A DNA stretch of 64,000 bases from Escherichia phage UE-M6: sequence record PP301343.1. One strand, 5' to 3'. How positions within the stretch are numbered: the first letter of the stretch is position 1; every line of letters starts with the position of its first letter. Below the pieces are notes generated by a model. The model was given only the letters and a program-made list of their open reading frames with translations. It searched no databases and was not told the DNA's origin. Of the stretch, positions 101-56,886 are shown piece after piece. Both the position numbers and the translations under genes were made by a program.

Positions 101-754
101 TTATATAGAGTTTACTGTTTGCATTGCCCTAATTGATACTGCTGTTAGGGTAATTACTTGTCCTGAGATATTAAACATACCTAACTGAATACCGTCTACC
201 ATGAAAGGGTCAGTTGAACCAAGTGTGTAAGTAGCCAGTACGTTATCTCTGTTAGCAATGTCTGTACCCTGTACTTTAACACTAGCATCTGAACCTACTA
301 TCGTAATTCCATTGGTTCGTCTTGTTTGTGTTCTCCATTCCCTTGCTGTACCTGCACCACCTGCAATAATTCCTGATATACGAACACTGAACATTACCTG
401 GGTATTCCTGGTTCTAATGGGGAACTTAAGATTTCCTTCTTCAATTGTTAGTGCTGCTGTACCTCCAGGTGATTTAGTTATCCCTGGTAATGAAAAGTAA
501 TTGAACCAGGATTGGTCATTTACTGCCTGGCTCCCGGTCCATGTATACAAGTCCAGAAGAAATGTGTCTTCTAACTCTGTTGGTGGGAAAGGTAGTAGTT
601 CTGGGGGGATCTCTGAGATGTTATTAGCAGAAACTATTCGTTCCCCATAACTTCCCACGACCAACAATCCCCCCTTCATTTTGCACACAACATCCTTACC
701 ACTTTGGAAAATATCTTTAATAGACATAGTTACCTCGCAGTTGATACCAGACAC
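101..754 (-). CDS. Hypothetical virion-associated protein (possible fibre or host-recognition protein)
   Basis: 217-aa ORF (start possibly the internal Met at codon 10), Gly/Thr/Ser-rich, followed by a terminator; no recognisable catalytic motif. Confidence 0.4.
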   Translation of the reverse strand: MSGINCEVTMSIKDIFQSGKDVVCKMKGGLLVVGSYGERIVSANNISEIPPELLPFPPTELEDTFLLDLYTWTGSQAVNDQSWFNYFSLPGITKSPGGTAALTIEEGNLKFPIRTRNTQVMFSVRISGIIAGGAGTAREWRTQTRRTNGITIVGSDASVKVQGTDIANRDNVLATYTLGSTDPFMVDGIQLGMFNISGQVITLTAVSIRAMQTVNSI

Positions 755-851
755 TATGTCTGGATGTATCCCATCATACTAAGTATTATCTAAGAGTCAT
801 CTTATGATACGACCCTATTGGGGTTCTTAACTTTACAACTACGGTAATATT

Positions 852-1181
852 ATGAATGAATCGGGCGAACTGCTTCTAGTCAGACTGGAGGAACGATTGA
901 AGACTCTGTTTGAGAATCAGACGAGAGACAGACAGGACCGTGAGAAACTGGAGGAAACTCTGGGAGAATTACGGGATTCAATCAATGACATAGGCAATAG
1001 ACTAAAAAATGTAGAGGATAGCTTAGCTAAGAATGAACCTACTATTGAAGAGTTCATCACCATTAAGCATAAAGTTGTTGGTGCTGGAATTTTTGGTAAG
1101 TGGGTATGGGCTGGAGCAGGTGCAATTATTGGTGTATTGGCTGCTGCAAGACGGGAGATATTCGCATGGTTCGCAGGCTAA
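852..1181 (+). CDS. Hypothetical coiled-coil protein with C-terminal hydrophobic segment (lysis-cassette associated)
   Basis: 109-aa ORF, charged coiled-coil-like N-terminus, C-terminal AGIFGKWVWAGAGAIIGVLAA hydrophobic stretch; immediately upstream of the putative holin and endolysin. Confidence 0.4.
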   Translation: MNESGELLLVRLEERLKTLFENQTRDRQDREKLEETLGELRDSINDIGNRLKNVEDSLAKNEPTIEEFITIKHKVVGAGIFGKWVWAGAGAIIGVLAAARREIFAWFAG

Positions 1182-1426
1182 AAAGAAAAGTAGAGTTAGT
1201 ACCTAACTGGAAAAGATGCTGGAAATGGGCATCCATTCAAATTAGTACGTTTGGTTTAATTCTATTCTCTGCTGTAGATATCATCCAACCAATGGTGACA
1301 GGATTACCTCGTCACATCTTGGAAGATATTCCCCATGGTTCCAATATTGCAATCGCACTGTTTGCCTTAAACATCATAGGCAGATTAATACGATTCCGAC
1401 CAAAGGAAGATTCACATGAAAGCTAA
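1166..1426 (+). CDS. Putative holin / pinholin (two predicted TM helices)
   Basis: 86-aa product from the internal ATG of ORF 1100..1426; two hydrophobic segments; 3' end overlaps the endolysin start. Confidence 0.4.
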   Translation: MVRRLKRKVELVPNWKRCWKWASIQISTFGLILFSAVDIIQPMVTGLPRHILEDIPHGSNIAIALFALNIIGRLIRFRPKEDSHES

Positions 1427-2051
1427 ACAGAAACTTGCTGCAAAAGGTGGTGCAGTGGGAGGGGTTATCGCTGCTATTCTGGGGGCAGTGTTCTATATGG
1501 AAGGAGGTTATGTAAACAATCCTCGTGACCCAGGTGGGGAAACTAATCATGGTATTACCCAATCAGTAGCTAAGACTCATAAAGAAGTTCTGGCTACTGA
1601 GTATGGTTGGGATGGTTCTATGAAGGGTTTATCTAAAGAGATGGCTGCTGAGATATACATTGATGACTATGTACTTAAACCTAACTTCGTAGCCTTCGCT
1701 GATATATCTCCTGCTGTAACGCATAAGCTAGTAGATGCTGGTGTTAATACTGGTGTAACCCGTCCTGCTAAGTGGTTGCAGATGTCTCTTAATGAAATGT
1801 CACGTAATGGCAAAGACTACCCTAAAATACAGGTTGATGGTAAAGTCGGTACAAGTACTGTTAATGCATATAAAGCATTACAGAAAAAACGGGGCAAAGT
1901 TGCAGCATGTCAGGTAATGATTAAGCTGCTTGATGCTAAACAACTGAACCACTATACCTCATTAAACATGCCAGACTTTACGTATGGTTGGGTAGCTAAC
2001 CGAATAGGCAATGTGCCACTGGAGGCATGTAATGAAGATGCTAATCTCTAA
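1416..2051 (+). CDS. Endolysin, GH108-type N-acetylmuramidase with possible N-terminal SAR segment and C-terminal peptidoglycan-binding region
   Basis: Motif EGGYVNNPRDPGGETNHGIT resembles the GH108 signature; a Gly/Ala-rich weakly hydrophobic N-terminus (AVGGVIAAILGAVF) precedes it; position matches the N4 gp61 slot. Confidence 0.75.
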   Translation: MKAKQKLAAKGGAVGGVIAAILGAVFYMEGGYVNNPRDPGGETNHGITQSVAKTHKEVLATEYGWDGSMKGLSKEMAAEIYIDDYVLKPNFVAFADISPAVTHKLVDAGVNTGVTRPAKWLQMSLNEMSRNGKDYPKIQVDGKVGTSTVNAYKALQKKRGKVAACQVMIKLLDAKQLNHYTSLNMPDFTYGWVANRIGNVPLEACNEDANL

Positions 2052-2538
2052 AGGTTGGCCTTATCTTCTGGTGGTGGTCCTTGGGGCCACCATTTACTTT
2101 TGGGGCAATTCCAATGGGCAGTCTACTGTTCAAAAGAAATGGGATGCCCAAAAGGTCGAAGACCAAAAGGCAACGCAAAAATTACAGGACAAATACAATG
2201 CTCTCCAAAGAAACCATAGTTATGAAGTCGGGTTACTCACTTCCCGGTTGCAGACGGCTGAGAGTAATTACGCAAGCGAGCTTGCTCGCGTTAGCAGTGA
2301 TTACGACAGCCGGATGCAACAGTCTGAAAGACGAGCATCGGTATATAAACGTCAAGCCGAAGCCGGAACCCTTGAGTGCAGAAGTCTTGCAAGCCATGCA
2401 GCCAGACTCGACAATAGTCTTGAAGAAGGCAGACGTTTGGTTGAAGAACTCCGGGCAACTGTTAGACTCCGTGACAGCCAACTAATTGAGTTGGGTAAAC
2501 AGATTCAGGCTGACCGTAAACTTTTTGAACAGGAATAA
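2032..2538 (+). CDS. i-spanin (Rz-like)
   Basis: N-terminal TM helix ([16 protein letters not shown]) followed by a long charged coiled-coil region; GGAGG RBS 6-7 nt before the ATG at 2032; directly downstream of the endolysin. Confidence 0.6.
2222..2485 (+). CDS. o-spanin (Rz1-like lipoprotein) embedded in the i-spanin gene in the +1 frame
   Basis: Signal peptide ending in a lipobox-like LAVITTAGC; lies entirely inside the i-spanin ORF; alternative start at 2198 has an AGGA RBS. Confidence 0.5.
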   Translation: MKSGYSLPGCRRLRVITQASLLALAVITTAGCNSLKDEHRYINVKPKPEPLSAEVLQAMQPDSTIVLKKADVWLKNSGQLLDSVTAN

Positions 2539-2540
2539 CT

Positions 2541-4811
2541 ATGGAACACCAAGACACTTTTAAGCCTTTACCAGACCCGGCTCAATCAGAGAAGTTAACG
2601 GACTGGAAGAAGGAACCAAGTATCCAATTACTGAAGGGTGATTTGGAATCTGCTAAACCTGCTCACGATGCAATCATGGCACAGATTCGTGAGTGGAATG
2701 ATTTAATGGAAGTAAAGGGTAAGGCTAAACCCCCAAAGGTTAAGGGACGCTCGCAAGTCCAGCCTAGACTGGTTCGCCGTCAGGCAGAGTGGCGTTATGC
2801 TCCATTGTCTGAACCATTCCTCTCGTCTAACAAACTATTTAAGGTAACTCCGGTTACTTTTGAAGATGAGTTAGCTGCACGCCAGAATGAGCTAGTTCTT
2901 AACTACCAATTCCGTACTCAGCTTAATAAAGTAAAACTGGTAGATGATTACGTGCATAGTGTCGTAGATGACGGTACTGGTATTGCTCGTATCGGTTGGG
3001 AACGTAAGACTATTAAGATTAAAACAGAAACTCCAGTCTTCCAGTTGTATCCAATTGAGAACCAGGAACAAGCAGATGTTCTCCAACAGGCTTTGCAGCT
3101 TCAGGCAGAGAATCCCCGTGAGTATGACGAAACAATGCCAGAAGATATCAAAGAAGCTGTTAACTACTTCAATGAAACTGGAGAAGCTACTTATGCAATT
3201 CAGACAGGGGTCACTGAAGTAGAAGTAGAAAAAGCACTGGTTAACAGACCTACCGTTGAAATGCTTAATCCTAATAACGTAGTTATTGACCCGAGCTGCA
3301 ATGGTGATTTGGATAAGGCTCTGTATGCAGTCATTTCCTTTGAGACTTGCAAAGCAGACCTTATGAAAAACAAAGACCGTTATCACAACCTAGATAAAAT
3401 TGACTGGGAGAGTTCCAGCCCCATTACTGACCCAGACCATGAAAGTAAAACCCCTAGCGATTTCCAGTTTAAGGATGCACTTCGTAAGAAGGTAGTTGCT
3501 TATGAGTACTGGGGATTCTACGACATCAATGATGATGGTTCACTGGAACCAATTGTTGCTACCTGGATTGGTTCTACTCTTATTCGTATGGAGAAGAACC
3601 CATTCCCAGATGGTAAGTTACCATTGGTAGTTGTTCCTTATATGCCTCGTAAACGTGAACTCTATGGTGAAGCTGATGCTGAATTGCTAGGAGATAACCA
3701 AGCAATTCTTGGTGCAACCATGCGTGGGATGATTGACCTGTTGGGCCGAAGTGCAAATGGTCAACGTGGTTATCCTAAAGGGATGTTAGATACCCTGAAC
3801 CGTCGTCGATACGATGATGGACAAGACTACGAATATAACCCAATGCAGGGCAATCCTAGTCAGGCCATTATGGAACACAAGTTCCCTGAGTTACCCCAGT
3901 CGGCAATAGTAATGACTCAGATGCAAAACCAGGAAGCAGAAGCACTAACGGGTGTTAAAGCATTCTCGGGTGGTGTAACTGGTGAAGCTTACGGAGATGT
4001 AGCTGCTGGTATTCGTGGTGTACTAGATGCAGCATCCAAACGTGAGATGGCAATCCTTCGTCGATTAGCTAAGGGTATGGCAGACATTGGTACTAAGATT
4101 TGTGCAATGAATGCTGTGTTCTTATCTGAGAAAGAAGTAGTACGTATTACTAACGAGCAGTACGTAGAGATTAACCGTGAAGACCTTAAAGGTAACTTCG
4201 ACATTGAGGTTGATATTAACACTGCTGAAATTGATAACCAGAAGTCCCAGGATTTGGGCTTCATGGTTCAAACACTAGGCAACACAGTTGACCAGTCTAT
4301 TACGTTATCTCTTGTAGCTAAGATTGCAGAACTTAAACGTATGCCAGACCTTGCTCATGAGTTACGTACATGGCAACCACAACCAGACCCTATGGAAGAA
4401 CAGCTTAAGCAATTGGCAATTCAGAAAGCACAGCTTGAGAACGAAGAGCTGCAAAGTAAGATTGCACTCAATATGGCTAAGGCTAAAGAGGCTGCTTCTA
4501 GTGGTGACCTTAAAGATCTGGATTATCTGGAACAGGAATCTGGTACTAAACATGCTCGTGACATGGAAAAACAAAAAGCACAATCTCAAGGAAACCAGAA
4601 CCTTCAGATAACTAAGGCGTTGACAACACCTACTAAAGAAGGTGAAACTACCCCCAACATATCTGCTGCTGTTGGATATAACGCTTTGACTAATGGGAAC
4701 TCTATACCAGAACGTGACTTAGCTGCACAACAAGACCCAGCTTATTCACTTAGTTCCCAATTCTATGACCCTAGCCAAGACCCAGCATCGGCTCTTGGCA
4801 TGAACTTGTAA
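2541..4811 (+). CDS. Portal protein (N4 gp59-like)
   Basis: 756-aa ORF, size and position upstream of scaffold and capsid genes; strong coding signal. Confidence 0.8.
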
Positions 4812-9251: not shown

Positions 9252-11906
9252 ATGGGCTTATTCAGTGGGAAGACCAAAGTATACGTAGCATCCTCTGTCT
9301 ATAACATGGCAGGGGATATACATAAACGCCCTAACTATATGAAGACTGTAGTTATAGGTAATATTGTTTCCAATACAGGATTCACTATGGCAGATACTAT
9401 CTCTGATAGTTATCTGAATGGGCCAGGTATTCGTATGCGACTGTTCTCCAGCTGGAGTAAGAACCACTATGATTCAGTAGTTGGTATGGCTGGTTCTTCA
9501 TTGGGTGTATTGGCTAAGATTGACCCTACCGTTATAGAGGGTCAAATTACACCCCCTGCTGGTGAATCAGTCTATGTTCAGGCAGCAGAGATTGGCTTTG
9601 CTGACTTTGAGCAATGGTGTGACCAGTATCTTTATGAGAATGCTCCAAGTCGAATCATGGAACGATTCGACATAGATATTGATGAAGATACTAATGAAAT
9701 CACTATGACCTCCTTAGATGGGGGCTCTACTATTACATTCACACCTACTAACTTTGAACCAGGTGCTTTATATCTCTATGCTGATTACTCATTCTATAAG
9801 ACCCCTTCTACTAATCCTCCGGTAGTAGGACCGACTACTGTCTATGATGATGAGGATGACTTACCTTCCACTTTGTTATGGACTACCGTCTCAAGTGATA
9901 CGACGGCTAACACAACCAATCTTACTAAGACTATACATACTCATTCTGTTTACTCTGATGGCAGACCGGATGAAGACAGTACTGTCACAGAACCAAGTGT
10001 GGATAACTGGAACTCTTACGTTAAAGTTTATCGTAGAGGATTCACTGAGAAACCTGATGATGTGACTGTAGTTGTATCTGACAGGGTAATGACTCATACA
10101 AAATTTGGTGAGATTCAATCCAGTACTTCTGTAACTACTAATGTGGTTGATATAGGTGGAGGTGTTACTCGTACAGATACAATCACTACAACCACAGAGA
10201 CACTGGTTCGTAAGTACTCATCCCAGACTACCCGTACTGATACCGAGATGACTGCTGTTAGTACACCTAAAATGCTTATTTATAAGCAGAACTCCGGTAA
10301 CGTTGCACTGGATTCTTTGTTCGAGACTGAAGCTACTGATAACCGATTCTACCCATTCATTCCAATCAGAAATGATAAGCAATGGGTAGAGAATGACCCA
10401 ATCTACCCACACTGTAAGAAAGCCCTTTATAAAGCTACTGGTGGAAAAATTGATAAAGTAGTCACAGAGCTTAAGAAGAATGATGACATAGGTGATATTC
10501 AGTACATCTATGGTTCATTTGGTGTATCCCTTAATACCCCCGAGGATAGTGCTAAGGAATACATCTATCGTTTCTTTCAGATGGCTACTGAAGCATTCCC
10601 ACCTGACCCAACCTACCCAACACTGGAAGCAGTGATTGCAGGCTATCAGGCAGCAAATGATGCAGTTGACGCATATGTGGAATGGTGGAACAGGACTGAA
10701 GGGCATATTATTGGAACACCTCCACCACTGCCAGAATACCCAGTTATACCTAAGCGAGAGTTTAGGGTGCATAGTAATAAGCAGTACAAGTACGACATGA
10801 CTATTGGCTGGAACTATGTATCTGAAACTACCCATTCAGGTCAAGCATGGTCTGGTGCTAAGCAGGGGCAACTTCGAGCCAGGTATGCAGGAGATATAAC
10901 CCTTACTCGTAAGAACATAAGGACAGCTTCCAACTCCGGTTCTGCTAAGAAACTTGAGGTAACATACACATTCTATTCAATGCAGGAATACGAGTTGCTT
11001 TGGCAGGATGGTAATAATACCTATCGTAAACTTAGAGTACTGGGTCTAAATCACAACAACAGGGTATATAAAAATAAGTCAGTGCACATTGATGTTGCCG
11101 AAGCAATGGGTGATGCAGAGGAGAGTGGATTCATTATTCCACTGCACACCAATATCTACCGTTCAATGTCACTGGTTCGTAGCACTCAGTTATCCACTGC
11201 CTGCTCCTACTTAGTGATGAACTCATATAAGAAGGTTAAGCAGAAGTGGTATCAGACTGGGGCATTTAAAATTGTTGTTGTAGTGGTAGCTGTAGTTGTC
11301 TCTGTATTTACAGCAGGTGCTGGTGGTGCAGGTATACTTGGGGCATACGGTGCAGTCGGTGCATCACTTGGTTTTGTTGGATTAGCTGCTGTAATAGTTG
11401 GTGCTGTAGCAAACGCCATAGCTGCAATGATTCTGGTATCCATTATTACTAAAGTATCTACTTCACTGTTCGGTGATAAGCTAGGTTTTATCATTGCTGC
11501 TATTGCCTCAATGGTAGCCATGAACGTTGGTACTGCTTTGTCTACTGGTACATCCTTATCCTCTTTAGCTGGTGAAATGATGAATGCTCAAAACATCATG
11601 CAACTTACCAGTTCAGTGGGTAATGGCATTAGTCAGTATATTAATGCATCCACGGCTGCTACTATTCAGAAAGCAGAGAGTGTAATGCAGCAGTACAATA
11701 CTGATATGATGGCAATCAATAAGCAGTATGAAGAGATGTTCGGTACTGCTGGACAGGGTGTGATTGACCCCATGCAATTCGTGTCAATGGAGTCGTTGGA
11801 TTCATTCTTGTCACGTACTCTCATGACTGGTTCAGATATAGCTGACTTGTCTTTAGACATGGTTGGCAACTACTCTGATATGACTCTTAATACTGACCTT
11901 GTTTAA
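9252..11906 (+). CDS. Large virion protein with C-terminal glycine-zipper transmembrane region (N4 gp53-like position)
   Basis: 884-aa ORF; residues about 665-730 form a long Gly/Ala/Val-rich hydrophobic stretch. Confidence 0.55.
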   Translation: MGLFSGKTKVYVASSVYNMAGDIHKRPNYMKTVVIGNIVSNTGFTMADTISDSYLNGPGIRMRLFSSWSKNHYDSVVGMAGSSLGVLAKIDPTVIEGQITPPAGESVYVQAAEIGFADFEQWCDQYLYENAPSRIMERFDIDIDEDTNEITMTSLDGGSTITFTPTNFEPGALYLYADYSFYKTPSTNPPVVGPTTVYDDEDDLPSTLLWTTVSSDTTANTTNLTKTIHTHSVYSDGRPDEDSTVTEPSVDNWNSYVKVYRRGFTEKPDDVTVVVSDRVMTHTKFGEIQSSTSVTTNVVDIGGGVTRTDTITTTTETLVRKYSSQTTRTDTEMTAVSTPKMLIYKQNSGNVALDSLFETEATDNRFYPFIPIRNDKQWVENDPIYPHCKKALYKATGGKIDKVVTELKKNDDIGDIQYIYGSFGVSLNTPEDSAKEYIYRFFQMATEAFPPDPTYPTLEAVIAGYQAANDAVDAYVEWWNRTEGHIIGTPPPLPEYPVIPKREFRVHSNKQYKYDMTIGWNYVSETTHSGQAWSGAKQGQLRARYAGDITLTRKNIRTASNSGSAKKLEVTYTFYSMQEYELLWQDGNNTYRKLRVLGLNHNNRVYKNKSVHIDVAEAMGDAEESGFIIPLHTNIYRSMSLVRSTQLSTACSYLVMNSYKKVKQKWYQTGAFKIVVVVVAVVVSVFTAGAGGAGILGAYGAVGASLGFVGLAAVIVGAVANAIAAMILVSIITKVSTSLFGDKLGFIIAAIASMVAMNVGTALSTGTSLSSLAGEMMNAQNIMQLTSSVGNGISQYINASTAATIQKAESVMQQYNTDMMAINKQYEEMFGTAGQGVIDPMQFVSMESLDSFLSRTLMTGSDIADLSLDMVGNYSDMTLNTDLV

Positions 11907-30992: not shown

Positions 30993-33146
30993 TTATTTGC
31001 CAGCGTAGCGTTTAGCCACGGTGACCATTACGGTTGCATTCAATTCATCATCTGGTAATGGATTAGCCAGTTTCTTATTGAATGTGTGGACGGCTTGCTG
31101 TACTTGAGCAAAGTCCCAACCACTGTCAACCAATGCCAGTGCGTACTTAATCATTTGATTATTACGATTACCGGAGGCAATACGACTAGCGAACCAACGC
31201 TCCAGATTATCCAACGACTGTACTTCCTTCATCTGGTTCTGGAACTGCTCGTTCTTACTAGTACGAGGAATAAAGTCACGCACATCTAACAGATTCGCAT
31301 CAAGATTGTAATGATAGGAACCAGTCTCACAGGACATCCACTTCTTGGCTCGTTGGTTAGCAGACTCATCTGTTTCAAATGGTAGCCAAGCCATAACGTT
31401 ATTCATGAACTCTTTGTATTCCTCAGTGTCGAGGTGTAACTCATAGTTCATTGGAATAATCAGACGGAAGCGGTTCTCTTCATCAGTATGACGCTTGGTG
31501 GTATAGGTCATGAACTTATATTCCTTCATTAGTTCATGGCACGTATGCAGGGGTACTCCACCATCACAGTCAATAACAATCATGTTAAATCCTGGGATAA
31601 CATTTTCTTCAGAACGATGCCCATTCTTCATGTGATGGTTTACCCAGTGCATACCGGGAGCTTGGGTTAATACATGCAACTGGTCGAACGGTACACGTTC
31701 ACCAATGTAGTCATAAGCAAAGCTATCACTATACGCCACAATCATCTCATTGATGTCTGTCTCTTTAAGAGTTTCACCACGGAAGAACTCAATACCTTCA
31801 TTGAAGGTCTTCTTAATGATGATGTGCTGCTTGTAACCCCATGCTGTAGCAAGAGTCATCATCTCATTACGAGCTGCATTACCACTCTTATAGAATGGTA
31901 AAGACTCCACCAAATCAGCATGGGTTACTTCTTTACCTACAGAAGCAATGTACTTAGCCAGCTTCACATAAGCCTTCTCACGATTGAGGATTGTCTGAAA
32001 TGCTGCTCCAGATTCTTCTACAAGCAGAATTGCTTGTTTAAGGTGGGTCATCTCAATGAATGAACTTTGGTCAACAAACGCCAGTGCACCTGCCAGCTTA
32101 AGTGCTTTGAAATAACGGTGAGAAATTTCAGCTTTACGAATATCTTCATGGTCAGCCATAGCTTCTGCTTGCTTCTCACAATCAATTTTGTAAGCAATCA
32201 GAGCAATACCCACGGCATCTTCTACAACCATCTTAAAACCAAACAGGTTTGGGTCAGCCAGACTATGGAAATGGTTAGCCCACTTACCAAGAGTCTGTAC
32301 GTTATCTTGTTTAATCAGGTTACGGTAGATTTCTTCCGGGGTTAGTGTTGCATGTGCTCTCTTGTCTAAGTGACCAGTAGCAAACAGACAGCGACGTGCA
32401 TACCCTATATCGAGAAAGCCATAGAACTGGTCTTCAGTCTGACCACCATCCAGCAGCTTACTCGGAGTACCGAACAGCAGCAGGTTAGTTGGAGTTTTTC
32501 CATCCAATTCTTCACCACGAACGCTTTCAGCAGTATTCTTGGTTAGCTTCTGTTTTACTTTTCCCTGGTCATATAACTCCAGGAATAGGGTTAGTACATC
32601 CATGTTAGCCAACAGGTTCGAACCAATTTCATCAATCTGAAGATTGATTGAACCACACCCAGCCATTAACAGCTTATGCCGTAGCTGTTTAACTGCTGGT
32701 GGAGTACCAGAGTCAAACGTAAACGGATATGCCCCGGCACGTTTATACTCTGCTTCAACTTTATCAAACTCTTCCTGCTGGTCAGTACCCTGACGAGCAG
32801 AACGTTCGTTAGCAATCTTCCATAGACGATCATTTGCAATGACGGGCATGGTGTCTTCCATAAAGCGTTTACGGAAGCCAGACATGAACCCGTCTTCAAT
32901 GATATTTACTGAGTGACCTTTACCGAAACCAGATGTAGCCAACGCTATAGCGTAGATGTTTACCGGCAGGTCACCACGGTCTTTAGTTACAATGGTTGCA
33001 CCCATGCAGGATGCCATTTTAGCCAAGAAGTAGGCTACTTCGACACGGAAGAATCCCCGGTCATTATTCTGGGTTTTATTGCAGAGCACATCTACGATTT
33101 CTTCAATCGCTGGATGGTGACTGATGTCAGTAAGGTCGATACTCAT
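30993..33146 (-). CDS. Putative DNA primase (N4 gp43-like position)
   Basis: 717-aa ORF placed by synteny between the ATPase and nuclease genes; no motif verified by eye. Confidence 0.45.
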   Translation of the reverse strand: MSIDLTDISHHPAIEEIVDVLCNKTQNNDRGFFRVEVAYFLAKMASCMGATIVTKDRGDLPVNIYAIALATSGFGKGHSVNIIEDGFMSGFRKRFMEDTMPVIANDRLWKIANERSARQGTDQQEEFDKVEAEYKRAGAYPFTFDSGTPPAVKQLRHKLLMAGCGSINLQIDEIGSNLLANMDVLTLFLELYDQGKVKQKLTKNTAESVRGEELDGKTPTNLLLFGTPSKLLDGGQTEDQFYGFLDIGYARRCLFATGHLDKRAHATLTPEEIYRNLIKQDNVQTLGKWANHFHSLADPNLFGFKMVVEDAVGIALIAYKIDCEKQAEAMADHEDIRKAEISHRYFKALKLAGALAFVDQSSFIEMTHLKQAILLVEESGAAFQTILNREKAYVKLAKYIASVGKEVTHADLVESLPFYKSGNAARNEMMTLATAWGYKQHIIIKKTFNEGIEFFRGETLKETDINEMIVAYSDSFAYDYIGERVPFDQLHVLTQAPGMHWVNHHMKNGHRSEENVIPGFNMIVIDCDGGVPLHTCHELMKEYKFMTYTTKRHTDEENRFRLIIPMNYELHLDTEEYKEFMNNVMAWLPFETDESANQRAKKWMSCETGSYHYNLDANLLDVRDFIPRTSKNEQFQNQMKEVQSLDNLERWFASRIASGNRNNQMIKYALALVDSGWDFAQVQQAVHTFNKKLANPLPDDELNATVMVTVAKRYAGK

Positions 33147-33658
33147 TTGATTAATCCTATGCTCTTATTAGTGACGGCATATTCTCCGAAGTATTTTACG
33201 GCAGCTAAGTCGTATACTTTGGCAGCTTCAATTGCTTCCAGGAATACACCTAAATGAATTGATTTACGGTTTACTTTGATTTTGGCTAAGTAGTTACCCC
33301 TGAACTTAGTAACACCCATAAAACCACTGGTGTTGTTTTTATTCAGTCCACGGTTAGCACCATTGGTGCTTTTATCCGCTTCCCTTAGATTGTCTATCCA
33401 GTTGTGGTGACGTATGGTGTCTTTATGGTCTATTAAACCAGTAGGCCACATACCGTACACGTACAACCAAGCTAACCTATGGGCAGCTTCCCGTTTGGCA
33501 TCAACTGTTATGTAGAGATAACCGTCACTGTTATTGAGCGACCCAGCAACACTACCGACAGGTGTTCGGTTACTGAGGGAGATGCGGCGAGTAAATATCC
33601 CAGTAAGTGGGTCATAATGCAGCAACTCTTTTAGCCGTTGCTGAGTCAGCTTAATCAT
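33143..33658 (-). CDS. HNH homing endonuclease with AP2 DNA-binding domain
   Basis: HNH_3-like motif YDPLTGIF...IDHKDTIRHHNWIDNLRE and AP2-like C-terminus; start at the internal Met; inserted between the nuclease and primase genes. Confidence 0.75.
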   Translation of the reverse strand: MIKLTQQRLKELLHYDPLTGIFTRRISLSNRTPVGSVAGSLNNSDGYLYITVDAKREAAHRLAWLYVYGMWPTGLIDHKDTIRHHNWIDNLREADKSTNGANRGLNKNNTSGFMGVTKFRGNYLAKIKVNRKSIHLGVFLEAIEAAKVYDLAAVKYFGEYAVTNKSIGLIK

Positions 33659-34635
33659 GATGGAAAATATCTCTCTCTTTGTTTGCAAATGGTTGCGACA
33701 GGGCAGTATAAGCAACGCTTAACCTGCCCCTCCACGACCTTGATAGCACCCTTGCCACCTTTTTCAGCCATGAAGATACGGGCAGATGCCATATCGTCAA
33801 AGTTTTTGGTACTTCTGGCTCCAGGCATATCTACCTTAGAAGCATCAGAGAAGTATTTGAACTGTGGCTCTGTTCGCCACAACTCCTCGTCAGTACATTC
33901 AGGAATTTCCTCTTCAGGAGCATCCCAGTACTTTTCGATGAGATGTATCTTCTCTTCTACCCAACGTTCAGTCTTATCGACAGATAACAACGGAATATCC
34001 TTATGCATAATACGATTAGCAGGATAGTTCGGATTGCTATTAGCCATGTGTTTCATGAAGTCAGTGAAGATGTAGTTAATACGGATTACATCCTCGGTAA
34101 TGATGTCGTTGTGAATCCAACGGTACAAGCTACCTTGCATCTTGTGTTCATCATCACGGGAACCAGCAACCCAGGAATAGGTTGAGGTAGACTTAAAGTC
34201 TTGCAATAGACCTTCTGTTACGATGTCGAACTTACCTCCGATAGTCCAACCCTTAACTACCCTGGTTCCACGTTGTTCAATGTAGATTGGGATAAGGTCA
34301 GGGTTAGCATCAAAGTCTGCTTTGGTTGGGTTAATGACTACTGCATCAATTACTCGCTGAGGATAACCCAACTTTTTCAATGCAGTCTTATGGCCTAACT
34401 TCCAGGCTTTCTCAATAGAATCGTGTAAGCCAGTACCCATTGATGTGGAGACGAAATCCATAACATCAATAGACTGGTCACTAAGGTCTACACGATGTTT
34501 CATGACGATTTGCTTAAGTGGCTTAAGCAATGTAGTTACAGACAGATACTTGGGATTGTCTACATAATCATACTCGTCATGTAATAGCCATACAGCCAGG
34601 GCCAGCGAGACATCATGGTTGTTGGTTATCTTCAT
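33655..34635 (-). CDS. Putative PD-(D/E)XK-type nuclease with C-terminal Cys cluster (N4 gp42-like position)
   Basis: 326 aa; C-terminal CLYCPVATIC cluster reminiscent of Cas4/RecB-like nucleases; in the replication module. Confidence 0.4.
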   Translation of the reverse strand: MKITNNHDVSLALAVWLLHDEYDYVDNPKYLSVTTLLKPLKQIVMKHRVDLSDQSIDVMDFVSTSMGTGLHDSIEKAWKLGHKTALKKLGYPQRVIDAVVINPTKADFDANPDLIPIYIEQRGTRVVKGWTIGGKFDIVTEGLLQDFKSTSTYSWVAGSRDDEHKMQGSLYRWIHNDIITEDVIRINYIFTDFMKHMANSNPNYPANRIMHKDIPLLSVDKTERWVEEKIHLIEKYWDAPEEEIPECTDEELWRTEPQFKYFSDASKVDMPGARSTKNFDDMASARIFMAEKGGKGAIKVVEGQVKRCLYCPVATICKQRERYFPS

Positions 34636-48839: not shown

Positions 48840-49346
48840 TTATTTTGAAGGTCTAGCAGCTACTGGTTTGTTTTCCTGATTCTGATACTTACCATTGTAA
48901 TTAGCAGGTTCTTGAACCAGATGAAATAATACTTGAGCTATCCCAGCACCAGCCGGGATATGCAATTTCTTACGACCGTGATAGACCAGTTCGAGGGTAA
49001 GATACCCTTTCCATCCTGGTTCTATTACGGTATTGAACACTGATAATGCACGTCTTGCCCATGTAGACTTATCGTGAACGATTGCTACACAGGACGGGGA
49101 CATGTTGAACTTCTCAATTGCTGAGGCCAAGGCGAACTTACCGAGATGGCGTGATACTTGATTTCCATCAACGACTTTCACCATTGGAATCAGCCCAAAT
49201 AAGCGATAGAAGGTAATATCTTGTTTGATACGAATATCATAACCAGCTTCACCTAATCCATAGCTTACACCATGCTCTGATACCTTATGGTCTGGGACAT
49301 CCAGCAACTGAGATGAACGGTATAGAGAATTACCATTAACAACCAT
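48840..49346 (-). CDS. dCTP deaminase / dUTPase-family protein
   Basis: Motif GEAGYDIR and later PAGAGIAQVLF resemble trimeric dUTPase/dCTP deaminase motifs. Confidence 0.45.
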   Translation of the reverse strand: MVVNGNSLYRSSQLLDVPDHKVSEHGVSYGLGEAGYDIRIKQDITFYRLFGLIPMVKVVDGNQVSRHLGKFALASAIEKFNMSPSCVAIVHDKSTWARRALSVFNTVIEPGWKGYLTLELVYHGRKKLHIPAGAGIAQVLFHLVQEPANYNGKYQNQENKPVAARPSK

Positions 49347-50521
49347 TATTTCATTCCTTTAGGGATATGAACTACCTCCCCAAAAGGTACGGTAGCATTG
49401 GGATTATTCAGAACACACCAGATGATAGGAATATCAAATGGTAATTCTTCCATTGGACGAACATACATATCGGAGAATATGATTGCAGCGGTTGGTTTAT
49501 TCTTAATAATCCACTCGCGTACTGGTTCCAGGTTTGTACCACCACGACCGGTAATCTTAATCTCTTCAAAAGTATCTTCTTCAGTGATGTCTATCTCTTC
49601 TTGGATAATATCGTCGAAGGTAATTAAGGACATCTTCTTAGGATTGAACTGGCTCTTAACGTAGGCAACCTCTGAGTTAAAACGCAGAGAGTCAGCACTA
49701 CTAATAGAACCAGATACATCCTCAAAGTAGGCTAAGTGTCGTAAGCGTCCTTCATCATCTTCCATGGAAGGTAGATAGATGTCAGTAAAACGACGGTTAG
49801 GTCTGGCCCACGTATAATGAGTATCGTCAATGTCGGTAAAGAAGTTCATGAGGACTTCCTGCCATGGAACCACTGGTTTAAGGAATTGGGTAATAACCTC
49901 TTCCATACGACCAGCACCCTTACCGGGCATCTGTCCACCAGCCATTTTCTGGCTCTGCATTGCTCGTACTACGTTGTTGACGACAGCACCCTGGGACTGC
50001 CCCGAAGTGGGGGATTTCATGTCGCCAGCAAGACCTGCTCCAGCACCCCCTGACGGCTTCTGCCTTTTCTGAGGGTTCTTCATCAGGTCATCGTAGATGT
50101 CTTCTTCGACCCATCCTTTATATTGAGGGTCTTTGCAAATACCTTTATCAATGCCAGTGAACTTGTAACCGTCTTCCTCTAACTGAAGGTTAATGAAGTG
50201 GTCACATGCCTGATTCCAGATTTCTGGGTCACGGCTTCCACGACGGATGCCATGCAGATATGCCACATGCCAAAGTTCATGCATTAACACTGTTTCTCTG
50301 GCATCTGGACACATCCAGATAAAGAAATCTGGATTGAAGTGAAGTTCTATCCCATCAGTACATGCAGTGGGACAATTCTCACGTTTCCATGAGAACTTAA
50401 GACTACATAGTAATGAACCAAAGAACGCAGCACTGCGTCCGAGAAATGCGTTGGCCTGTATTCTATCGTATTCCCTCATTAACTGTTCATCAGTGAGGTT
50501 ATGTGGTGGTATGTTATTCAT
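49346..50521 (-). CDS. VWA-domain protein with N-terminal HExxH metallopeptidase-like region (N4 gp25-like)
   Basis: HELWH motif in the N-terminal half; MIDAS-like DVSGSIS in the C-terminal half; partner of the upstream AAA+ ATPase. Confidence 0.6.
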   Translation of the reverse strand: MNNIPPHNLTDEQLMREYDRIQANAFLGRSAAFFGSLLCSLKFSWKRENCPTACTDGIELHFNPDFFIWMCPDARETVLMHELWHVAYLHGIRRGSRDPEIWNQACDHFINLQLEEDGYKFTGIDKGICKDPQYKGWVEEDIYDDLMKNPQKRQKPSGGAGAGLAGDMKSPTSGQSQGAVVNNVVRAMQSQKMAGGQMPGKGAGRMEEVITQFLKPVVPWQEVLMNFFTDIDDTHYTWARPNRRFTDIYLPSMEDDEGRLRHLAYFEDVSGSISSADSLRFNSEVAYVKSQFNPKKMSLITFDDIIQEEIDITEEDTFEEIKITGRGGTNLEPVREWIIKNKPTAAIIFSDMYVRPMEELPFDIPIIWCVLNNPNATVPFGEVVHIPKGMK

Positions 50522-50997
50522 TAAGATGCTCCATGATTTATATGGTAACCCAATAATTTTTCTGCTTCCTTTCTGGCTGTAATGGCCTCTTGTTTACTGT
50601 TAAACTTTCCTAAGTAAATTTGTTTACCATTATCATTTATATGGGCAGCCCAGATTTTATCTCGGGTGTGCCAGTAAACTCCTGTCACACCTGATGTATT
50701 TGTAATTCTCTTGGTTTGATTTTTGCAATTAATCGAGTTTGTTACTAAACGGAAATTGCTTGGGTAATTATTTAATCTATTATGGTCAATATGGTCTACC
50801 TGCATACCGTCAGGAATTGGTCCAATCTCCATTTCATAAATTATGCGGTGAACTAAATGCATTTTCTTGTTACATTTAACACGCAAATACCCACTGTTAT
50901 CCAAACAACCGGCAATGGCACCTGCTTTTACGCAGCCCCTGCTTACTTTCCAGTAGAGGGAACCATTGCTATAAACAAATAGTTCATGCCAATTCAT
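50521..50997 (-). CDS. HNH homing endonuclease with AP2 domain
   Basis: HNH_3-like VDHIDHNRLNNYPSNFRLVT and AP2-like C-terminus; inserted exactly between the AAA+ and VWA genes. Confidence 0.75.
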   Translation of the reverse strand: MNWHELFVYSNGSLYWKVSRGCVKAGAIAGCLDNSGYLRVKCNKKMHLVHRIIYEMEIGPIPDGMQVDHIDHNRLNNYPSNFRLVTNSINCKNQTKRITNTSGVTGVYWHTRDKIWAAHINDNGKQIYLGKFNSKQEAITARKEAEKLLGYHINHGAS

Positions 50998-51001
50998 TAT
51001 T

Positions 51002-52054
51002 TTATCCGTGAATGTAACGAGAGATATTAGCAGCAGCCTTACGCCATTCAGGTGTAGCCTGAAGTTCTGGCAATGCTCTGCCTACTGTACGGAAGTACAG
51101 AATCTTATGGGTGAACGTTTTAAAGCGTTCAATGTACTGAAGAACATCAGAGAAGTTTTCTTCAGTAGTTTTGTTAGCCAGGTGGTTAACAGTAGCCCAA
51201 CACAGGTTGTTATCTTCCGGTAGTGCACAGCCCAGAGGGTCTTTGACTACTTTCTCAATCGTAATCATACGATTGTATACCTGAGTGAATTGAACAAACT
51301 CTGTAGCCTTACCAGCAGTAACATGTCCTGCGTAGTAGATAGAATCTTCATCTGGCAGAGCACCTTCAGGACGGTTCTTGAGGTCTTTGTTAACAAAGTC
51401 CCAGGTGCGTGGGCAACAGAACGTTTTGTTCTTATGGGCTGGGTCGAAGTCATGCAGATAACCTGGGTTAGCATGTAAGAATGCAACCAGACGTTCATCC
51501 CATTCTTGTGGAATCATTACATCTTCAACAAAGATGTCGAAGTTAAGTTCCATTTCGAAGTGAACCACGCGAGACTGCATTGCAGTGCCCAGTGGGTTAA
51601 CAATGGCACGGTCAGTAGCTTTGTTACCAGCACATATAATCATCACATTAGGATGGAGTTTTTTCTGACCAGTCATACGGTCCAGAATCAGTTTGTATGC
51701 AGCAGCTACTACTTCTTTTCTGGCTGAGTTGAACTCATCAAGGAACAGGAGCCAACCATTATATCCTTCCGGTATCTCATCCCCCTCAATAGGGAATAAG
51801 TCAGCGAATGGGATAAACTCTGCACGGTCACCATTACGGAATGGTAGACCAGACAAATCCTCTGGGGCAGAAGTAGACAGACGATGGTCTATCAGTTTCA
51901 TACCAAATTCTTCTGCAACAGAGCGAATAATTGCAGATTTACCCATTCCCGGTGATGAAGTCAGGAACGGTACGTTACCTGCTTGCAGGGCACGGATAAT
52001 AAAGTTACGGGCCTGACGTGTATTACATACGGTCAGTGAGTCAATGCTCGCCAT
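51002..52054 (-). CDS. AAA+ ATPase, MoxR/CbbQ-like (N4 gp24-like)
   Basis: Walker A SPGMGKS, Walker B LLFLDEF; 350 aa. Confidence 0.7.
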   Translation of the reverse strand: MASIDSLTVCNTRQARNFIIRALQAGNVPFLTSSPGMGKSAIIRSVAEEFGMKLIDHRLSTSAPEDLSGLPFRNGDRAEFIPFADLFPIEGDEIPEGYNGWLLFLDEFNSARKEVVAAAYKLILDRMTGQKKLHPNVMIICAGNKATDRAIVNPLGTAMQSRVVHFEMELNFDIFVEDVMIPQEWDERLVAFLHANPGYLHDFDPAHKNKTFCCPRTWDFVNKDLKNRPEGALPDEDSIYYAGHVTAGKATEFVQFTQVYNRMITIEKVVKDPLGCALPEDNNLCWATVNHLANKTTEENFSDVLQYIERFKTFTHKILYFRTVGRALPELQATPEWRKAAANISRYIHG

Positions 52055-52088
52055 TTACTTACTCTCCTAAAGTTAATGGAATTACTAA

Positions 52089-52415
52089 TTAAGATTTAAT
52101 ACATGGGTAGGCTGTATCAATTGCCATCAGAACCATGTCTGATGGTACTTTTACTGCATTAACCTTTCTGTCATACAGAATAATAGTGGCTACTTTGTCA
52201 AAGACATTTCCTAACTTCAAACTATCTGGTACGCAGTTCTTACCTGCTTCTACACCCATAGTAACCATGCCCATAAAGTAACCCTGGTTCACAAAGTTTG
52301 CATTATTGGCTTTGTAGTCAGCAGCAGCGTCTAACAGAGTTTCACGGCTGGATGCTTGAGCATTGAATGACAGAACTGATAAAGCTACTACAGCAACAGC
52401 AATTAAAGTTTTCAT
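52089..52415 (-). CDS. Secreted / periplasmic small protein (signal peptide)
   Basis: N-terminal MKTLIAVAVVALSVLSFNAQA looks like a Sec signal peptide with an AQA cleavage site; mature part about 85 aa with two Cys. Confidence 0.5.
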   Translation of the reverse strand: MKTLIAVAVVALSVLSFNAQASSRETLLDAAADYKANNANFVNQGYFMGMVTMGVEAGKNCVPDSLKLGNVFDKVATIILYDRKVNAVKVPSDMVLMAIDTAYPCIKS

Positions 52416-52601
52416 TTAGTTACCTTTTAACTCGTTGAGTTGAAGTACTCCAGTAGGGGTTAATGACCACCCAAGACCAGCATTGAACTGCACTAAGCCC
52501 AGTTTCTTAAGAGACTGTGCGGTTTTATTATTGCGGTTGCTGGTGGCAGAACCACCTTGAACCATACGAAGGAAGATTGCTTGGGACTGGGTTAATTTCA
52601 C
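52416..52601 (-). CDS. Small hypothetical protein
   Basis: 61-aa ORF, tightly packed. Confidence 0.4.
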   Translation of the reverse strand: MKLTQSQAIFLRMVQGGSATSNRNNKTAQSLKKLGLVQFNAGLGWSLTPTGVLQLNELKGN

Positions 52602-54297: not shown

Positions 54298-55515
54298 TTA
54301 ACTTAATGCATAATCTGTTTCTAGAATGTCTTGCCAGAGGCTGTCATCCAGCTTACCAGCAGAGAACTCTTGTCCCAGTACTTGAGACAGAATGAAGCCC
54401 AGTAAGTCACTCTTAGCAATGTCAGACAGAATCTGATTGTACTGACGACGCAGGTCATTACCATAGTTAGGGTGGCAACGGAAGCAATCATGTACAGTCA
54501 TTACAGGGAATGGTTTCTTAGGCATAGTGTCGATCATATCTGCTACTACTTGACGGTCTACCAATGCAATAGTATTCGGGTCAAGGAAGTCTAGGATAGA
54601 TAGCGACAGGAATCCTGACCTTTCATAATGATTCCAGATTTCCATAGTCTTCTCTTGGTTCCCCTCAATAACGGGGTATTCACTTGGCCCGATATCGCAC
54701 AGTTCCCGTACATAGGCAACCAGTTTAGGGTCGAAGTTACAACGACGCAGCATCTCACGTACTACCATCCCATCAATAGAGTGAGTGATGTTAGCAGAGA
54801 GCATACGGGTCTTCTCTTCAGTACCCTGAACCATACGAGTGATGTCAAATGGTTTACCCAAGAAGTTAACAGTCTGTACTTCAAGAACCATGACTTTAAT
54901 GACAGCATGGAAGTTGTCAGGGAGTACCCATATGTAACGGTTAGCATCCGGGTTACCACATTGCAGTAAGAACTTGTTAAGTGCCCAAGGACCACTTGCA
55001 ACTGTTTCCATTACATTTTCAAAAGTCTTGAGACGGATACCTTCCCCGAATACTTCTTTAGGTTTGGCTTCTGAACCGTAGAATGCAGTCATAACTGCCT
55101 GCTTGGTATCACTACGTTTAATACGGGATGCTTCACCAAGGATGTCCAGCATCTTGTGATATATAACTGTATAAGCATCACGTCGTAATGGCTTACCATT
55201 CTCTCCCATGTAATTAACTACGTTACACAGTTCAGCAGCAGAGCGGTCACCAGTCAGGCAGGCCAGTAACTGCAAGCCTGATGATGTAGCATCCAGGGCT
55301 ACGGCATATCCGATAGGCTTACCAGCTTTCATATCTTTCCATGCGTTTACACCAGCATAGAACAGTGCAGATTCCTCAGCTTCATCTACCAGATTAAGCA
55401 AGTTAGCTTCATTCTCATCGAACCAAGCAATACGCTCATCCCAGGTCTTTTTATCCAGACCATAGTTATTGGCGATGTCTACTTTCAGGTATTCTTTAGC
55501 GGTTAACAGTTGCAT
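54298..55515 (-). CDS. RNA polymerase II catalytic (large) subunit, T7-like (N4 gp16-like)
   Basis: Motif A-like DATSSGLQ and motif C-like HDCF; start at the internal Met with an AAGGAA RBS. Confidence 0.8.
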   Translation of the reverse strand: MQLLTAKEYLKVDIANNYGLDKKTWDERIAWFDENEANLLNLVDEAEESALFYAGVNAWKDMKAGKPIGYAVALDATSSGLQLLACLTGDRSAAELCNVVNYMGENGKPLRRDAYTVIYHKMLDILGEASRIKRSDTKQAVMTAFYGSEAKPKEVFGEGIRLKTFENVMETVASGPWALNKFLLQCGNPDANRYIWVLPDNFHAVIKVMVLEVQTVNFLGKPFDITRMVQGTEEKTRMLSANITHSIDGMVVREMLRRCNFDPKLVAYVRELCDIGPSEYPVIEGNQEKTMEIWNHYERSGFLSLSILDFLDPNTIALVDRQVVADMIDTMPKKPFPVMTVHDCFRCHPNYGNDLRRQYNQILSDIAKSDLLGFILSQVLGQEFSAGKLDDSLWQDILETDYALS

Positions 55516-55561
55516 TTTATGTTCCTTAGCGTCTGAGCCATTTGGCTCGCATAGTGGGTAG

Positions 55562-56068
55562 TTATTGACCGTGACGGTTAGTATAGCCAGCACCATTCTG
55601 GTTCAAGGCTTCTAACATGTCGGCTCGTGCATCACATGCTTGTTGGAATGCGAACTCGTAGCCGTATTTCTTAACTGAGAATACTTTACACCTCTGTTTC
55701 TTTGTGATGTTGTCCGTACATGTAGCACGCCAGAATAACCCCTTTGGTGAATCCCATAGAGATACACCAGTTACCCCAGATTTATTGTCTGAACGTTTAG
55801 TAGAGTTACGCAGGTTGACTACAATGGGAACACATCGCAAGTTACACCAGCGGCAGTCCGTTCTGATACCGTTGATGTGGTCAATTGTATAACCAGCAGG
55901 GATAGATCTATGCTTCATTTCCCACAACCAACGGTGAAGGTATAAGATTTTATTTCCACGAGAGATGCGAATGTACCCAGTGGCACTATTCGCTGCCTCC
56001 GGTGGATGGGCTACAGCAAGTTCATCAACTGACTTGTTCCAGTAGCCCATTGGCATACGCTCTTTCAT
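55562..56068 (-). CDS. HNH homing endonuclease with AP2 domain
   Basis: HNH motif IDHINGIRTDCRWCNLR and AP2-like SGVTGVSLWDSPKGLFWRA; inserted between the two RNAP II subunit genes. Confidence 0.75.
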   Translation of the reverse strand: MKERMPMGYWNKSVDELAVAHPPEAANSATGYIRISRGNKILYLHRWLWEMKHRSIPAGYTIDHINGIRTDCRWCNLRCVPIVVNLRNSTKRSDNKSGVTGVSLWDSPKGLFWRATCTDNITKKQRCKVFSVKKYGYEFAFQQACDARADMLEALNQNGAGYTNRHGQ

Positions 56069-56886
56069 TAATCCTCATTAACAAGTTCTTTTTCTGCAAA
56101 TTCTAGGACTGCTTTATTCCAAGAAGTCCCTTGGTAGTTACAGTGATAGCCCTGAGCGTAAGTACGCCCACGTTTGTCATATTTGTGACCCAGTGAGAAG
56201 TTATTACCTTCTTTGGTCACTAACTCCATTACTTCTTTAGCGGTACGGCTGTATTTCTCAAAGGCTTTAACACGCTTCTCATAGTCCTGACGGGTTTCAC
56301 CCTCTTTAGGCTTATCCATGTTAGGACGAGAGTCTTTTACATAGTTAGCAACGTCCCAGTTAATACTTAGACGCTGATTATTCATACGGTTGATATGGTC
56401 AAGACAGACATCCATCTCATGATGGTTCTTCTTGAGGATGATACTTCCCCTGCTCTTGTAGTAACCTGTGTCACGGTTACACAGAACAGGCTTAGGAGCA
56501 CTTACGATGGGTAATGGATACTGGAATGCTTCCAGTTCCATCTGAACATCTTCACTAATCTCATAGATAACACCGAACTTGTCGATGGTAGGGTCATAGT
56601 TGAAGCAGTCATTCTCTGCCATCTTATACAGACAGTCAGCGATGTACTGAGCATCATCTGAATGGCTCATAAGAGAGCCAATCATAGTCTGAAGGTCAGC
56701 ACGTTTATGTAGGGCAATCTGCACCATTGCATCAATGAGCAGCTTATAATCAATTTCCAAATAGGCAGCGAATGCCTTAAAGTCAATTTCTTCGGAGTCC
56801 TCAAATTCCTTCCTCATGCGAGGGAGTAATTGATTTTTGTTGAAAAGAATTTCGAGTTGCTTCTGATGTTCAATGGATGAGTACAT
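56068..56886 (-). CDS. RNA polymerase II small subunit, T7-RNAP N-terminal-like (N4 gp15-like)
   Basis: Segment DKRGRTYAQGYHCNYQG resembles the T7 RNAP DWRGRVYA...NPQG region; AGGAGA RBS; preceded by a hairpin promoter. Confidence 0.7.
   Translation of the reverse strand: MYSSIEHQKQLEILFNKNQLLPRMRKEFEDSEEIDFKAFAAYLEIDYKLLIDAMVQIALHKRADLQTMIGSLMSHSDDAQYIADCLYKMAENDCFNYDPTIDKFGVIYEISEDVQMELEAFQYPLPIVSAPKPVLCNRDTGYYKSRGSIILKKNHHEMDVCLDHINRMNNQRLSINWDVANYVKDSRPNMDKPKEGETRQDYEKRVKAFEKYSRTAKEVMELVTKEGNNFSLGHKYDKRGRTYAQGYHCNYQGTSWNKAVLEFAEKELVNED

Follow-up and report, generated by a model that had tools for sequence, protein, structure and literature searches.

A putative free-standing HNH homing endonuclease gene at the gp25 start codon of a Gamaleyavirus and a recoded gp25 5' end linked to it

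In the DNA of Escherichia phage UE-M6 (PP301343.1), a short open reading frame separates two genes, gp24 and gp25, that adjoin one another in many related phages. The locus raises the question of what this gene is, how it came to lie there while both neighbors stayed complete, and whether its arrival has left a mark on the DNA around it. The stretch that we analyzed, called the window throughout, is 64,000 nucleotides long and belongs to a Gamaleyavirus (G7C-like, N4-like; Enquatrovirinae, Schitoviridae). The region is 99.8-99.9% identical to the Escherichia phages UE-S5b, UE-S5a and UE-M3 and 92% identical to vB_EcoP_G7C. The intervening homing endonuclease gene (HEG) is 100% identical in nucleotides to genes annotated as "HNH homing endonuclease" in UE-S5a, UE-S5b and UE-M3, and its G7C counterpart, ORF24.1 (gp24.1, YP_004782150.1; 92% nucleotide and 94% amino acid identity), is annotated as a putative HNH homing endonuclease. 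Among 22 variable loci of G7C-like horse phages, "ORF 24.1 deletion - putative homing nuclease, 10910-11400" has been listed, as has ORF 15.1 (bioRxiv 10.1101/542787, Table S1). The gene and its presence/absence polymorphism are thus already annotated and published, and ordinary. What is new here is a recoded patch at the 5' end of gp25, from which the enzyme's target and an immunity allele can be predicted in testable form.

A preliminary description, made by a model from the letters of the window, had placed an HNH homing endonuclease with an AP2 domain at 50521-50997, and these coordinates proved to be exact (Table 1). The protein matched Pfam HNH_3 (PF13392) over aa 48-90 with 65.8 bits, against a curated cut-off of 24.8 (E 2.6e-18), and the PHROG family phrog_99, "HNH endonuclease" (E 2.4e-63). 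When a profile of six homologs was used, the best solved relative was I-HmuI (PDB 1u3e), of which residues 1-105 were aligned (E 3.8e-10). In the alignment to I-HmuI "VDHKDGNKDNNLSTNLRWVTQKIN", residues D74, H75, N87 and N96 of that enzyme correspond to D68, H69, N81 and N90 of the HEG protein, and the latter four are invariant in all six aligned homologs. The HNH catalytic residues, whose lack the preliminary description had named as a reason to abandon its proposal, are therefore in place. We take D74 of I-HmuI to be metal-binding, H75 catalytic, N87 a structural asparagine and N96 metal-binding, and presumably the same roles fall to D68, H69, N81 and N90. The HNH assignment of the protein is sound, and its conserved residues predict nuclease activity.

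Table 1. Features of the gp24-gp25 region in the window (positions in the 64,000-nt stretch)
Feature	Position	Strand	Basis
gp24-like AAA+ ATPase, upstream neighbor, 350 aa	51002..52054	-	Pfam AAA E 2e-6; phrog_1297 ATPase E 7e-134
4-nt spacer AATA, gp24 stop to HEG start	50998..51001	-	Sequence; its counterpart lies ahead of gp25 where the site is empty
Free-standing HNH homing endonuclease gene (HEG), homolog of G7C ORF24.1	50521..50997	-	158 aa, ATG start; HNH_3, AP2 and phrog_99 matches
N-terminal region, aa 1-47, aligned with the I-HmuI N-terminal DNA-binding region	50857..50997	-	Six-homolog profile
HNH_3 nuclease motif, aa 48-90, with D68, H69, N81, N90	50728..50856	-	Pfam and I-HmuI alignment
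Probable C-terminal AP2-like DNA-binding domain, aa ~102-149	50551..50694	-	Pfam match below cut-off, phmmer, AlphaFold/Foldseek
GGAG Shine-Dalgarno-like motif in the HEG 3' end, 7 nt 5' of the gp25 ATG	50529..50532	-	Read from sequence
TAATG junction: HEG stop TAA (50521-50523) and gp25 ATG (50519-50521), one base in common	50519..50523	-	Sequence
HEG-linked recoding of the gp25 5' end (nt 1-66); predicted immune allele or co-conversion tract	50456..50521	-	Fixed differences
gp25-like protein with DUF2201_N metallopeptidase and DUF2201 VWA-like domains, downstream neighbor, 391 aa	49346..50521	-	Pfam E 3.3e-56, 1.7e-34

An AP2-like nature of the C-terminus is probable. Pfam AP2 (PF00847) scored 31.2 bits over aa 102-138 (E 2.8e-7), short of its curated cut-off of 33.3, and phmmer returned weak matches of the C-terminus to WRI1 and ApiAP2. 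An AlphaFold model built from a three-sequence alignment was poor overall (mean pLDDT 56.6) and lends weak support to an AP2-like topology, in the form of a beta-beta-beta-alpha unit at aa 106-149 (strands 106-110, 115-122 and 125-132, helix 135-149; local pLDDT ~70-78). Comparison of this unit with the PDB by Foldseek gave plant AP2/ERF domains as six of the top seven matches and a Plasmodium ApiAP2 domain as the remaining one, all of them weak (E 0.035-0.2). Searches of NCBIfam yielded no matches for the HEG, gp24 or gp25. For the gp24-like protein, the best solved-structure match, a weak one, was the AAA ring of midasin; together with a weak AAA/AAA_5 match, this is the whole basis of the "MoxR" label given to gp24 in the preliminary description.

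The insertion between the AAA+ and VWA genes had been taken to split a conserved pair, and a synteny test in which 15 Gamaleyavirus loci were aligned in coding orientation bore this out. In nine of the 15 (PGN829.1, U1G, NAN33P5 and six IMG/VR copies), gp24 and gp25 adjoin with only a 4- or 7-nt spacer between them, so the gene is far from universal at this site in relatives. The same contiguous, empty junction was present in 47 GenBank/RefSeq records, duplicates included, of a 50,697-record phage collection. Adjacency of gp24 and gp25 also holds in most of the more remote N4-like phages that we compared, with amino acid identities as low as 45%; the exceptions are two such phages that carry small unrelated ORFs between the two genes. 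Occupied junctions were found in only about nine distinct phages, namely UE-S5a, UE-S5b, UE-M3, G7C, Mimir124, PD38, Bp4, Uz-1 and Moonfish. At least about three quarters of isolates are free of the HEG, a majority that counts against overwhelming spread. In every occupied phage the insertion point is identical to the nucleotide, directly after the spacer and at the gp25 ATG. The insertion in the window comprises 476 nt, starting ATGAAYTGG and ending in TA, after which gp25 begins with ATGAAY; ATGAA is thus present at both ends. Sporadic presence at one precise site among close relatives, by which the homing class is recognized, is what these loci display.

An HEG encoded within a group I intron was considered as an alternative arrangement and rejected, since the gene lies between two complete ORFs and Rfam finds no intron family. 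A search of 49000..52500 against Rfam with E up to 1 returned one chance match to a miRNA family and no intron families, and relatives in which gp24 is interrupted gave no Rfam matches at gathering score. Taken by itself, the region is crowded with such sites: gp24 and its junction with gp25 have four independent insertion points in about 1.1 kb, a compact natural "HEG island".

Inspection of the two junctions suggested how the operon accommodates the insertion. The preliminary description had the HEG overlapping both neighbors. This is correct for the start of gp25, with which the HEG shares one base in TAATG, but not for the stop of gp24, from which it is separated by the 4-nt spacer. Other forms of the spacer (AACA and TCACAAC/TCACATC) occur in occupied as well as empty genomes, and the HEG start occupies the position that the gp25 start holds in empty genomes, after the same "...CACGGATAA + spacer" sequence. 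The TAATG junction recurs in G7C, Mimir124, PD38, Bp4 and Moonfish. Upstream of it, "CATGGAGCAYCYTAATG" is kept in each of the six occupied genomes but G7C, which has GGGG, and with this one variation the arrangement of GGAG and TAATG is retained ahead of gp25 in all three HEG lineages described below. By its position, the GGAG motif may serve as the ribosome-binding motif of gp25, whose translation is probably coupled to that of the HEG. Since the HEG brings both GGAG and TAATG to gp25, the operon is probably left unbroken by the insertion.

The occupants of the site fall into three lineages: that of the window and G7C (92% nucleotide identity), that of Mimir124 (75.5%), and that of PD38, Bp4, Uz-1 and Moonfish (~64% in nucleotides, 57-60% in amino acids). 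Between the HEGs of the window and G7C, dS was 0.37, compared with 0.31-0.38 in the flanks, and dN/dS was 0.095; the HEG is under purifying selection. Between lineages, synonymous sites of the HEG are saturated (pS 0.76-0.82), whereas the flanks have pS values of 0.23-0.33. The HEG lineages must therefore be much older than the genomes that surround them, an age mismatch expected of an element that moves between genomes. Bp4 and Uz-1 have the same -1 frameshift, at an A-run of the HEG, and the PD38 copy, otherwise identical, is intact. In Moonfish a 31-nt deletion has removed the AP2 part. Despite the saturated synonymous divergence, the intact lineages of window/G7C, Mimir124 and PD38 retain both length and motifs. 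Invasion, maintenance and decay can all be seen at this one site, and the decay is consistent with a homing cycle.

If the HEG homes into this junction, the DNA next to it could be expected to differ between carriers and non-carriers, and such a difference was found in gp25. Six HEG-carrying genomes differ from nine HEG-free ones by 11 fixed nucleotide substitutions, which all fall within gp25 nt 7-60; the last 500 nt of gp24 and the other 1,110 nt of gp25 contain none. When labels were permuted, none of 2000 permutations reached 11 fixed differences, and none exceeded 2. Divergence between the two classes amounted to 0.33-0.34 at gp25 nt 1-66, versus 0.02-0.11 in nearly all other intervals, the exception being nt 67-99 (0.22), where diversity within classes is equally high. 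Within the patch itself, diversity was 0.10-0.17 among HEG-carrying alleles and 0.04-0.07 among HEG-free alleles. The gp25 protein is altered at residues 3, 6 and 10; many of the substitutions are synonymous, with CGT replaced by AGG/AGA for Arg at codons 16 and 20, CTC by TTA/CTA for Leu, and CAC by CAT for His. The outgroup was a phage with 76% identity in the gp25 protein. Over nt 1-66 its identity to the HEG-free allele was 85-88% and to the HEG-carrying allele 64-67%, with 72% over the rest of gp25. Since the HEG-free allele is nearer to the outgroup, it represents the ancestral version, and the recoded patch of the carriers is derived.

A recoded allele without the HEG was sought in the 50,697 phage records and was absent from them; the recoded allele occurred in HEG-carrying records only. 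The sole intermediate was Uz-1, which has the frameshifted HEG of the Bp4 type and is recoded to about nt 33, after which the ancestral sequence follows. This indicates a crossover inside the patch at about nt 34. Since the recoding in Uz-1 stops at ~33 nt, linkage of nt 34-60 to the HEG is not obligatory, and the frameshift in its HEG makes Uz-1 uninformative about immunity. A patch of this kind is the mark that an endonuclease target and its immune allele, or else a co-conversion tract, would be expected to leave. It fits the prediction of intron-less homing, in which a conserved target at the 5' end of gp25 is found in a diverged copy in the carrier and adjacent nucleotides are co-converted. 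We infer from its sequence that the patch may act as recognition site and resistance determinant, and the cleavage site is accordingly placed, as a prediction, at the 5' end of gp25.

The window contains two further ORFs of the HNH_3 family, so that three are present in all, at 33143..33715, 50521..50997 and 55562..56068, each on the minus strand. A local profile scan of the window for more HNH-family ORFs returned only the known three, a result that is circular for those three. The preliminary description called the HEG the second of three paralogous HNH-AP2 genes, and the count of three stands. Paralogy, however, goes no further than the family level (34-38% pairwise identity among the three proteins), and AP2 was below cut-off or absent: the 55562..56068 copy scored 29.2 bits with Pfam AP2, again under the cut-off, and the 33143..33715 copy had no match at E <= 0.01. 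Homologs of the 50521..50997 protein were found in 3607 phage records, and its nearest relatives outside this site, at 48-52% identity, belong to unrelated siphoviruses of Klebsiella, Salmonella and E. coli. The HNH copy on the primase side is present in PBM-2, PBM-3, ZQ2 and PhAPEC5 and absent from the UE phages; only UE-S5a and UE-M3 have the one that lies between the RNAP subunits. We therefore reject a recent intragenomic duplication of the three genes, which are less similar to one another than this one is to siphovirus proteins and which are distributed independently. The closer kinship with siphovirus proteins also disposes of the idea, raised in the preliminary description, that the endonucleases had spread within this genome; they are better regarded as independent acquisitions.

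In all likelihood, then, the gene is a free-standing, intron-less HEG of the I-HmuI-like HNH_3 type with an AP2-like domain, inserted precisely at the gp25 start codon and with gp25 as its predicted target. Homing would proceed as follows. In a mixed infection with a related HEG-free phage, the enzyme would bind the gp24|gp25 junction in its ancestral form, along with the gp25 5' end, through its N-terminal and AP2 DNA-binding modules, and the HNH motif would nick or cut the DNA of this ancestral junction. Recombinational repair from the HEG-carrying genome would transfer the 476-nt gene and, with it, no less than the initial ~33-60 nt of gp25. Recoding of its own gp25 stretch, mostly at synonymous positions, would spare the carrier from self-cleavage. 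The translation-initiation region of gp25 in empty genomes would pass to the HEG, and gp25 would receive the new GGAG motif and the TAATG stop-start overlap, allowing the essential operon to continue working. Beyond this, we tentatively suggest, at slightly less than even likelihood, that the gp24|gp25 junction is a long-lived "allelic series", in which three anciently diverged HNH-AP2 lineages share one insertion point and are each accompanied by a recoded gp25 stretch of ~30-60 nt as immunity determinant.

Other accounts of the gene itself have to be weighed against homing. The HEG could be a decaying relic that arrived by homing in the past and is now passively carried with an inactive endonuclease. 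The frameshifted or deleted copies of Bp4, Uz-1 and Moonfish at the same site would agree with this, as would the absence of the HEG from most relatives. However, the window copy is full length and has all four catalytic or metal-binding residues, its low dN/dS with respect to G7C amounts to strong purifying selection across the whole divergence of both phages, and three lineages have stayed intact while their synonymous sites became saturated; a relic is therefore very improbable. Purifying selection would also be compatible with a domesticated HNH-AP2 protein that excludes competitors, degrades host or competitor DNA, or regulates the gp24-gp25 operon, and gp25 does now appear dependent on a ribosome-binding motif in the 3' end of the HEG. 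AP2-type domains serve elsewhere as pure DNA binders, and marker exclusion by phage endonucleases is established, a precedent for such a role. Against domestication, closely related phages are viable with only sporadic presence of the gene, which shows it to be dispensable, the recoded, target-like patch beside it is a specific signature of homing, and its huge and scattered family fits selfish spread. Exclusion and homing can moreover both hold. We regard domestication in place of homing as extremely unlikely.

The meaning of the gp25 patch is a separate matter from the homing of the gene. Rather than an immunity allele, the patch could be a co-conversion tract that hitch-hiked from the original donor, or an adaptation of translation initiation. 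It runs from the insertion point to a sharp edge near nt 66, as a conversion tract would, the Uz-1 crossover lies within it, and its greater diversity among carriers than among HEG-free alleles also speaks for such an origin. The first codons of a gene affect translation initiation, and recoding could reflect this influence. Nevertheless, three HEG lineages with saturated divergence keep the same kind of patch, while recombination has homogenized the sequence beyond nt 66 and on the gp24 side. Retention of the patch in the face of that much recombination suggests selection, for instance against self-cleavage, and the exchanged Arg codons, 16 and 20, lie at a distance from the ATG where no effect on initiation is obvious. 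On balance we consider a patch unrelated to immunity rather unlikely.

We know of no phage HNH-AP2 enzyme of this branch with a mapped recognition site. The patch predicts where such an uncharacterized endonuclease cuts and which substitutions protect against it. If the allelic-series reading is true, this so far uncharacterized enzyme would recognize nt ~1-60 of ancestral gp25, and since each lineage supplies the ribosome-binding motif of gp25, clean loss of the HEG would be penalized, giving a mild, addiction-like stabilization. In practical terms, a routine selfish gene is confirmed in a genus of phages that figures in therapy and host-range work, and the HEG site explains why whole-genome alignments of these phages break here.

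Comparison with known systems places the gene among its nearest counterparts. The records of UE-S5a, UE-S5b, UE-M3 and G7C have the same HEG at the same site, and the window phage differs from them only in which other HEG sites are filled. I-HmuI of Bacillus phage SPO1 aligns in its N-terminal region and HNH/HNN motif with aa 1-100 of the HEG protein, with conservation of the D-H...N...N residues. Unlike the HEG, which is free-standing and intergenic and has an AP2-like C-terminus, I-HmuI lies inside a group I intron and ends in a helix-turn-helix. I-HmuI nicks a single strand, and by analogy the HEG enzyme may do likewise. An HNH motif with a C-terminal AP2 domain defines a recognized HEG family, according to the passage of PMC10448857 that cites Magnani et al. 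2004, and the "IPA-HNH" HEGs of ICP1 phages form a divergent HNH-AP2 branch (PMC10448857). The HEG shares with this family an N-terminal HNH motif, a probable C-terminal AP2-like domain, a place beside essential genes and a sporadic distribution in phages. Pfam HNH_3, which the HEG matches strongly, fails to recognize the ICP1 IPA-HNH proteins because of their divergence.

Intergenic HEGs are also represented by the Seg and Mob genes of T4 and by cyanophage F-CphI, whose targets lie in a neighboring conserved gene, with co-conversion of flanking markers and a diverged allele in the carrier. Those enzymes are of GIY-YIG, other HNH or EndoVII types, and their cleavage and homing are experimental, whereas cleavage by the present HEG is deduced from sequence. 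The recoding of gp25 nt 7-60 fits the intron-less homing pattern of T4 Seg/Mob and F-CphI.

Each HNH ORF of the window is shared with a differing set of relatives, and the phage is therefore a mosaic of homing endonuclease gene (HEG) contents, with no single database record having the same set. The ORF beside the primase gene, which overlaps its neighbours at both ends (primase, 30993..33146; exonuclease-like gene, 33655..34635), was found in PBM-2 and PBM-3 at 99.9% identity and in ZQ2 and PhAPEC5 at 95-96.5%; most other relatives lack it, as do UE-S5a, UE-S5b and UE-M3. The third ORF, flanked by RNAP II subunit genes at 56068..56886 and 54298..55596, was found among relatives only in UE-S5a and UE-M3 (99.1%). 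At this junction UE-S5b is 263 nt shorter and has only a 240-nt remnant ORF. The junction is filled by different genes in other relatives, where the annotation reads HNH or endonuclease VII.

Coordinates of HNH ORFs, gp24 regions with inserts and small intervening ORFs
Feature	Source	Coordinates	Strand	Position
HNH_3 ORF	window	33143-33715	(-)	between primase gene and exonuclease-like gene
third HNH_3 + AP2-like ORF, 168 aa	window	55562-56068	(-)	between two RNAP II subunit genes
gp24 region with insert	U1G (locus L003)	847-2778, reverse-complement (coding-orientation)		after aa 106
gp24 region with inserts	NAN33P5 (locus L026)	847-3643, reverse-complement (coding-orientation)		after aa 106 and after aa 216
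gp24 region with insert	L013 (IMG/VR contig, 71,629 bases)	573-2490		after aa 67
small ORFs, 82 and 64 aa	L019 (distant N4-like phage)	1914-2483		between gp24 and gp25
small ORF, 82 aa	L016 (distant N4-like phage)	2189-2444		between gp24 and gp25

The AAA+ ATPase gene gp24 is itself interrupted in relatives, at three different breakpoints seen in U1G, NAN33P5 and the IMG/VR contig. Together with the gp24|gp25 junction occupied by the HEG, these breakpoints make four insertion points in ~1.1 kb, which constitute a small "HEG island" around gp24. The inserts measure ~870 nt apiece, and those after aa 67 and aa 106 encode a distant HNH homologue (~34% identity). Comparison of the inserts with Rfam revealed no group I or group II intron family at gathering score.

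At the junction itself, Uz-1 and Bp4, whose genomes are equally long, carry an identical HEG sequence, including the A-run frameshift, and differ in the flanks of the HEG. Uz-1 passes from the HEG-linked, recoded allele of gp25 to the ancestral, HEG-free allele at gp25 nt ~34 (Uz-1 locus L028, 1126-1245); it is a natural recombinant with a crossover within the predicted target region. Frameshifts are also present in gp24 and gp25 of Bp4, and these may be sequencing errors.

The gp25-type protein (window 49346-50521 (-)) falls in PHROG 1314, labelled "HNH endonuclease", and bears the same name in several RefSeq records. Pfam analysis of this protein revealed no HNH domain, only DUF2201_N (metallopeptidase) and DUF2201 (VWA-like). 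The label appears to be a misannotation that was propagated, and its origin may lie in a fusion with, or adjacency to, ORF24.1-type genes.

Two distant N4-like phages (L019 and L016), whose gp24 and gp25 are ~50% identical to those of the window, have small ORFs without HNH similarity in the interval between the two genes; outside Gamaleyavirus, therefore, the gp24-gp25 unit is not always kept intact.
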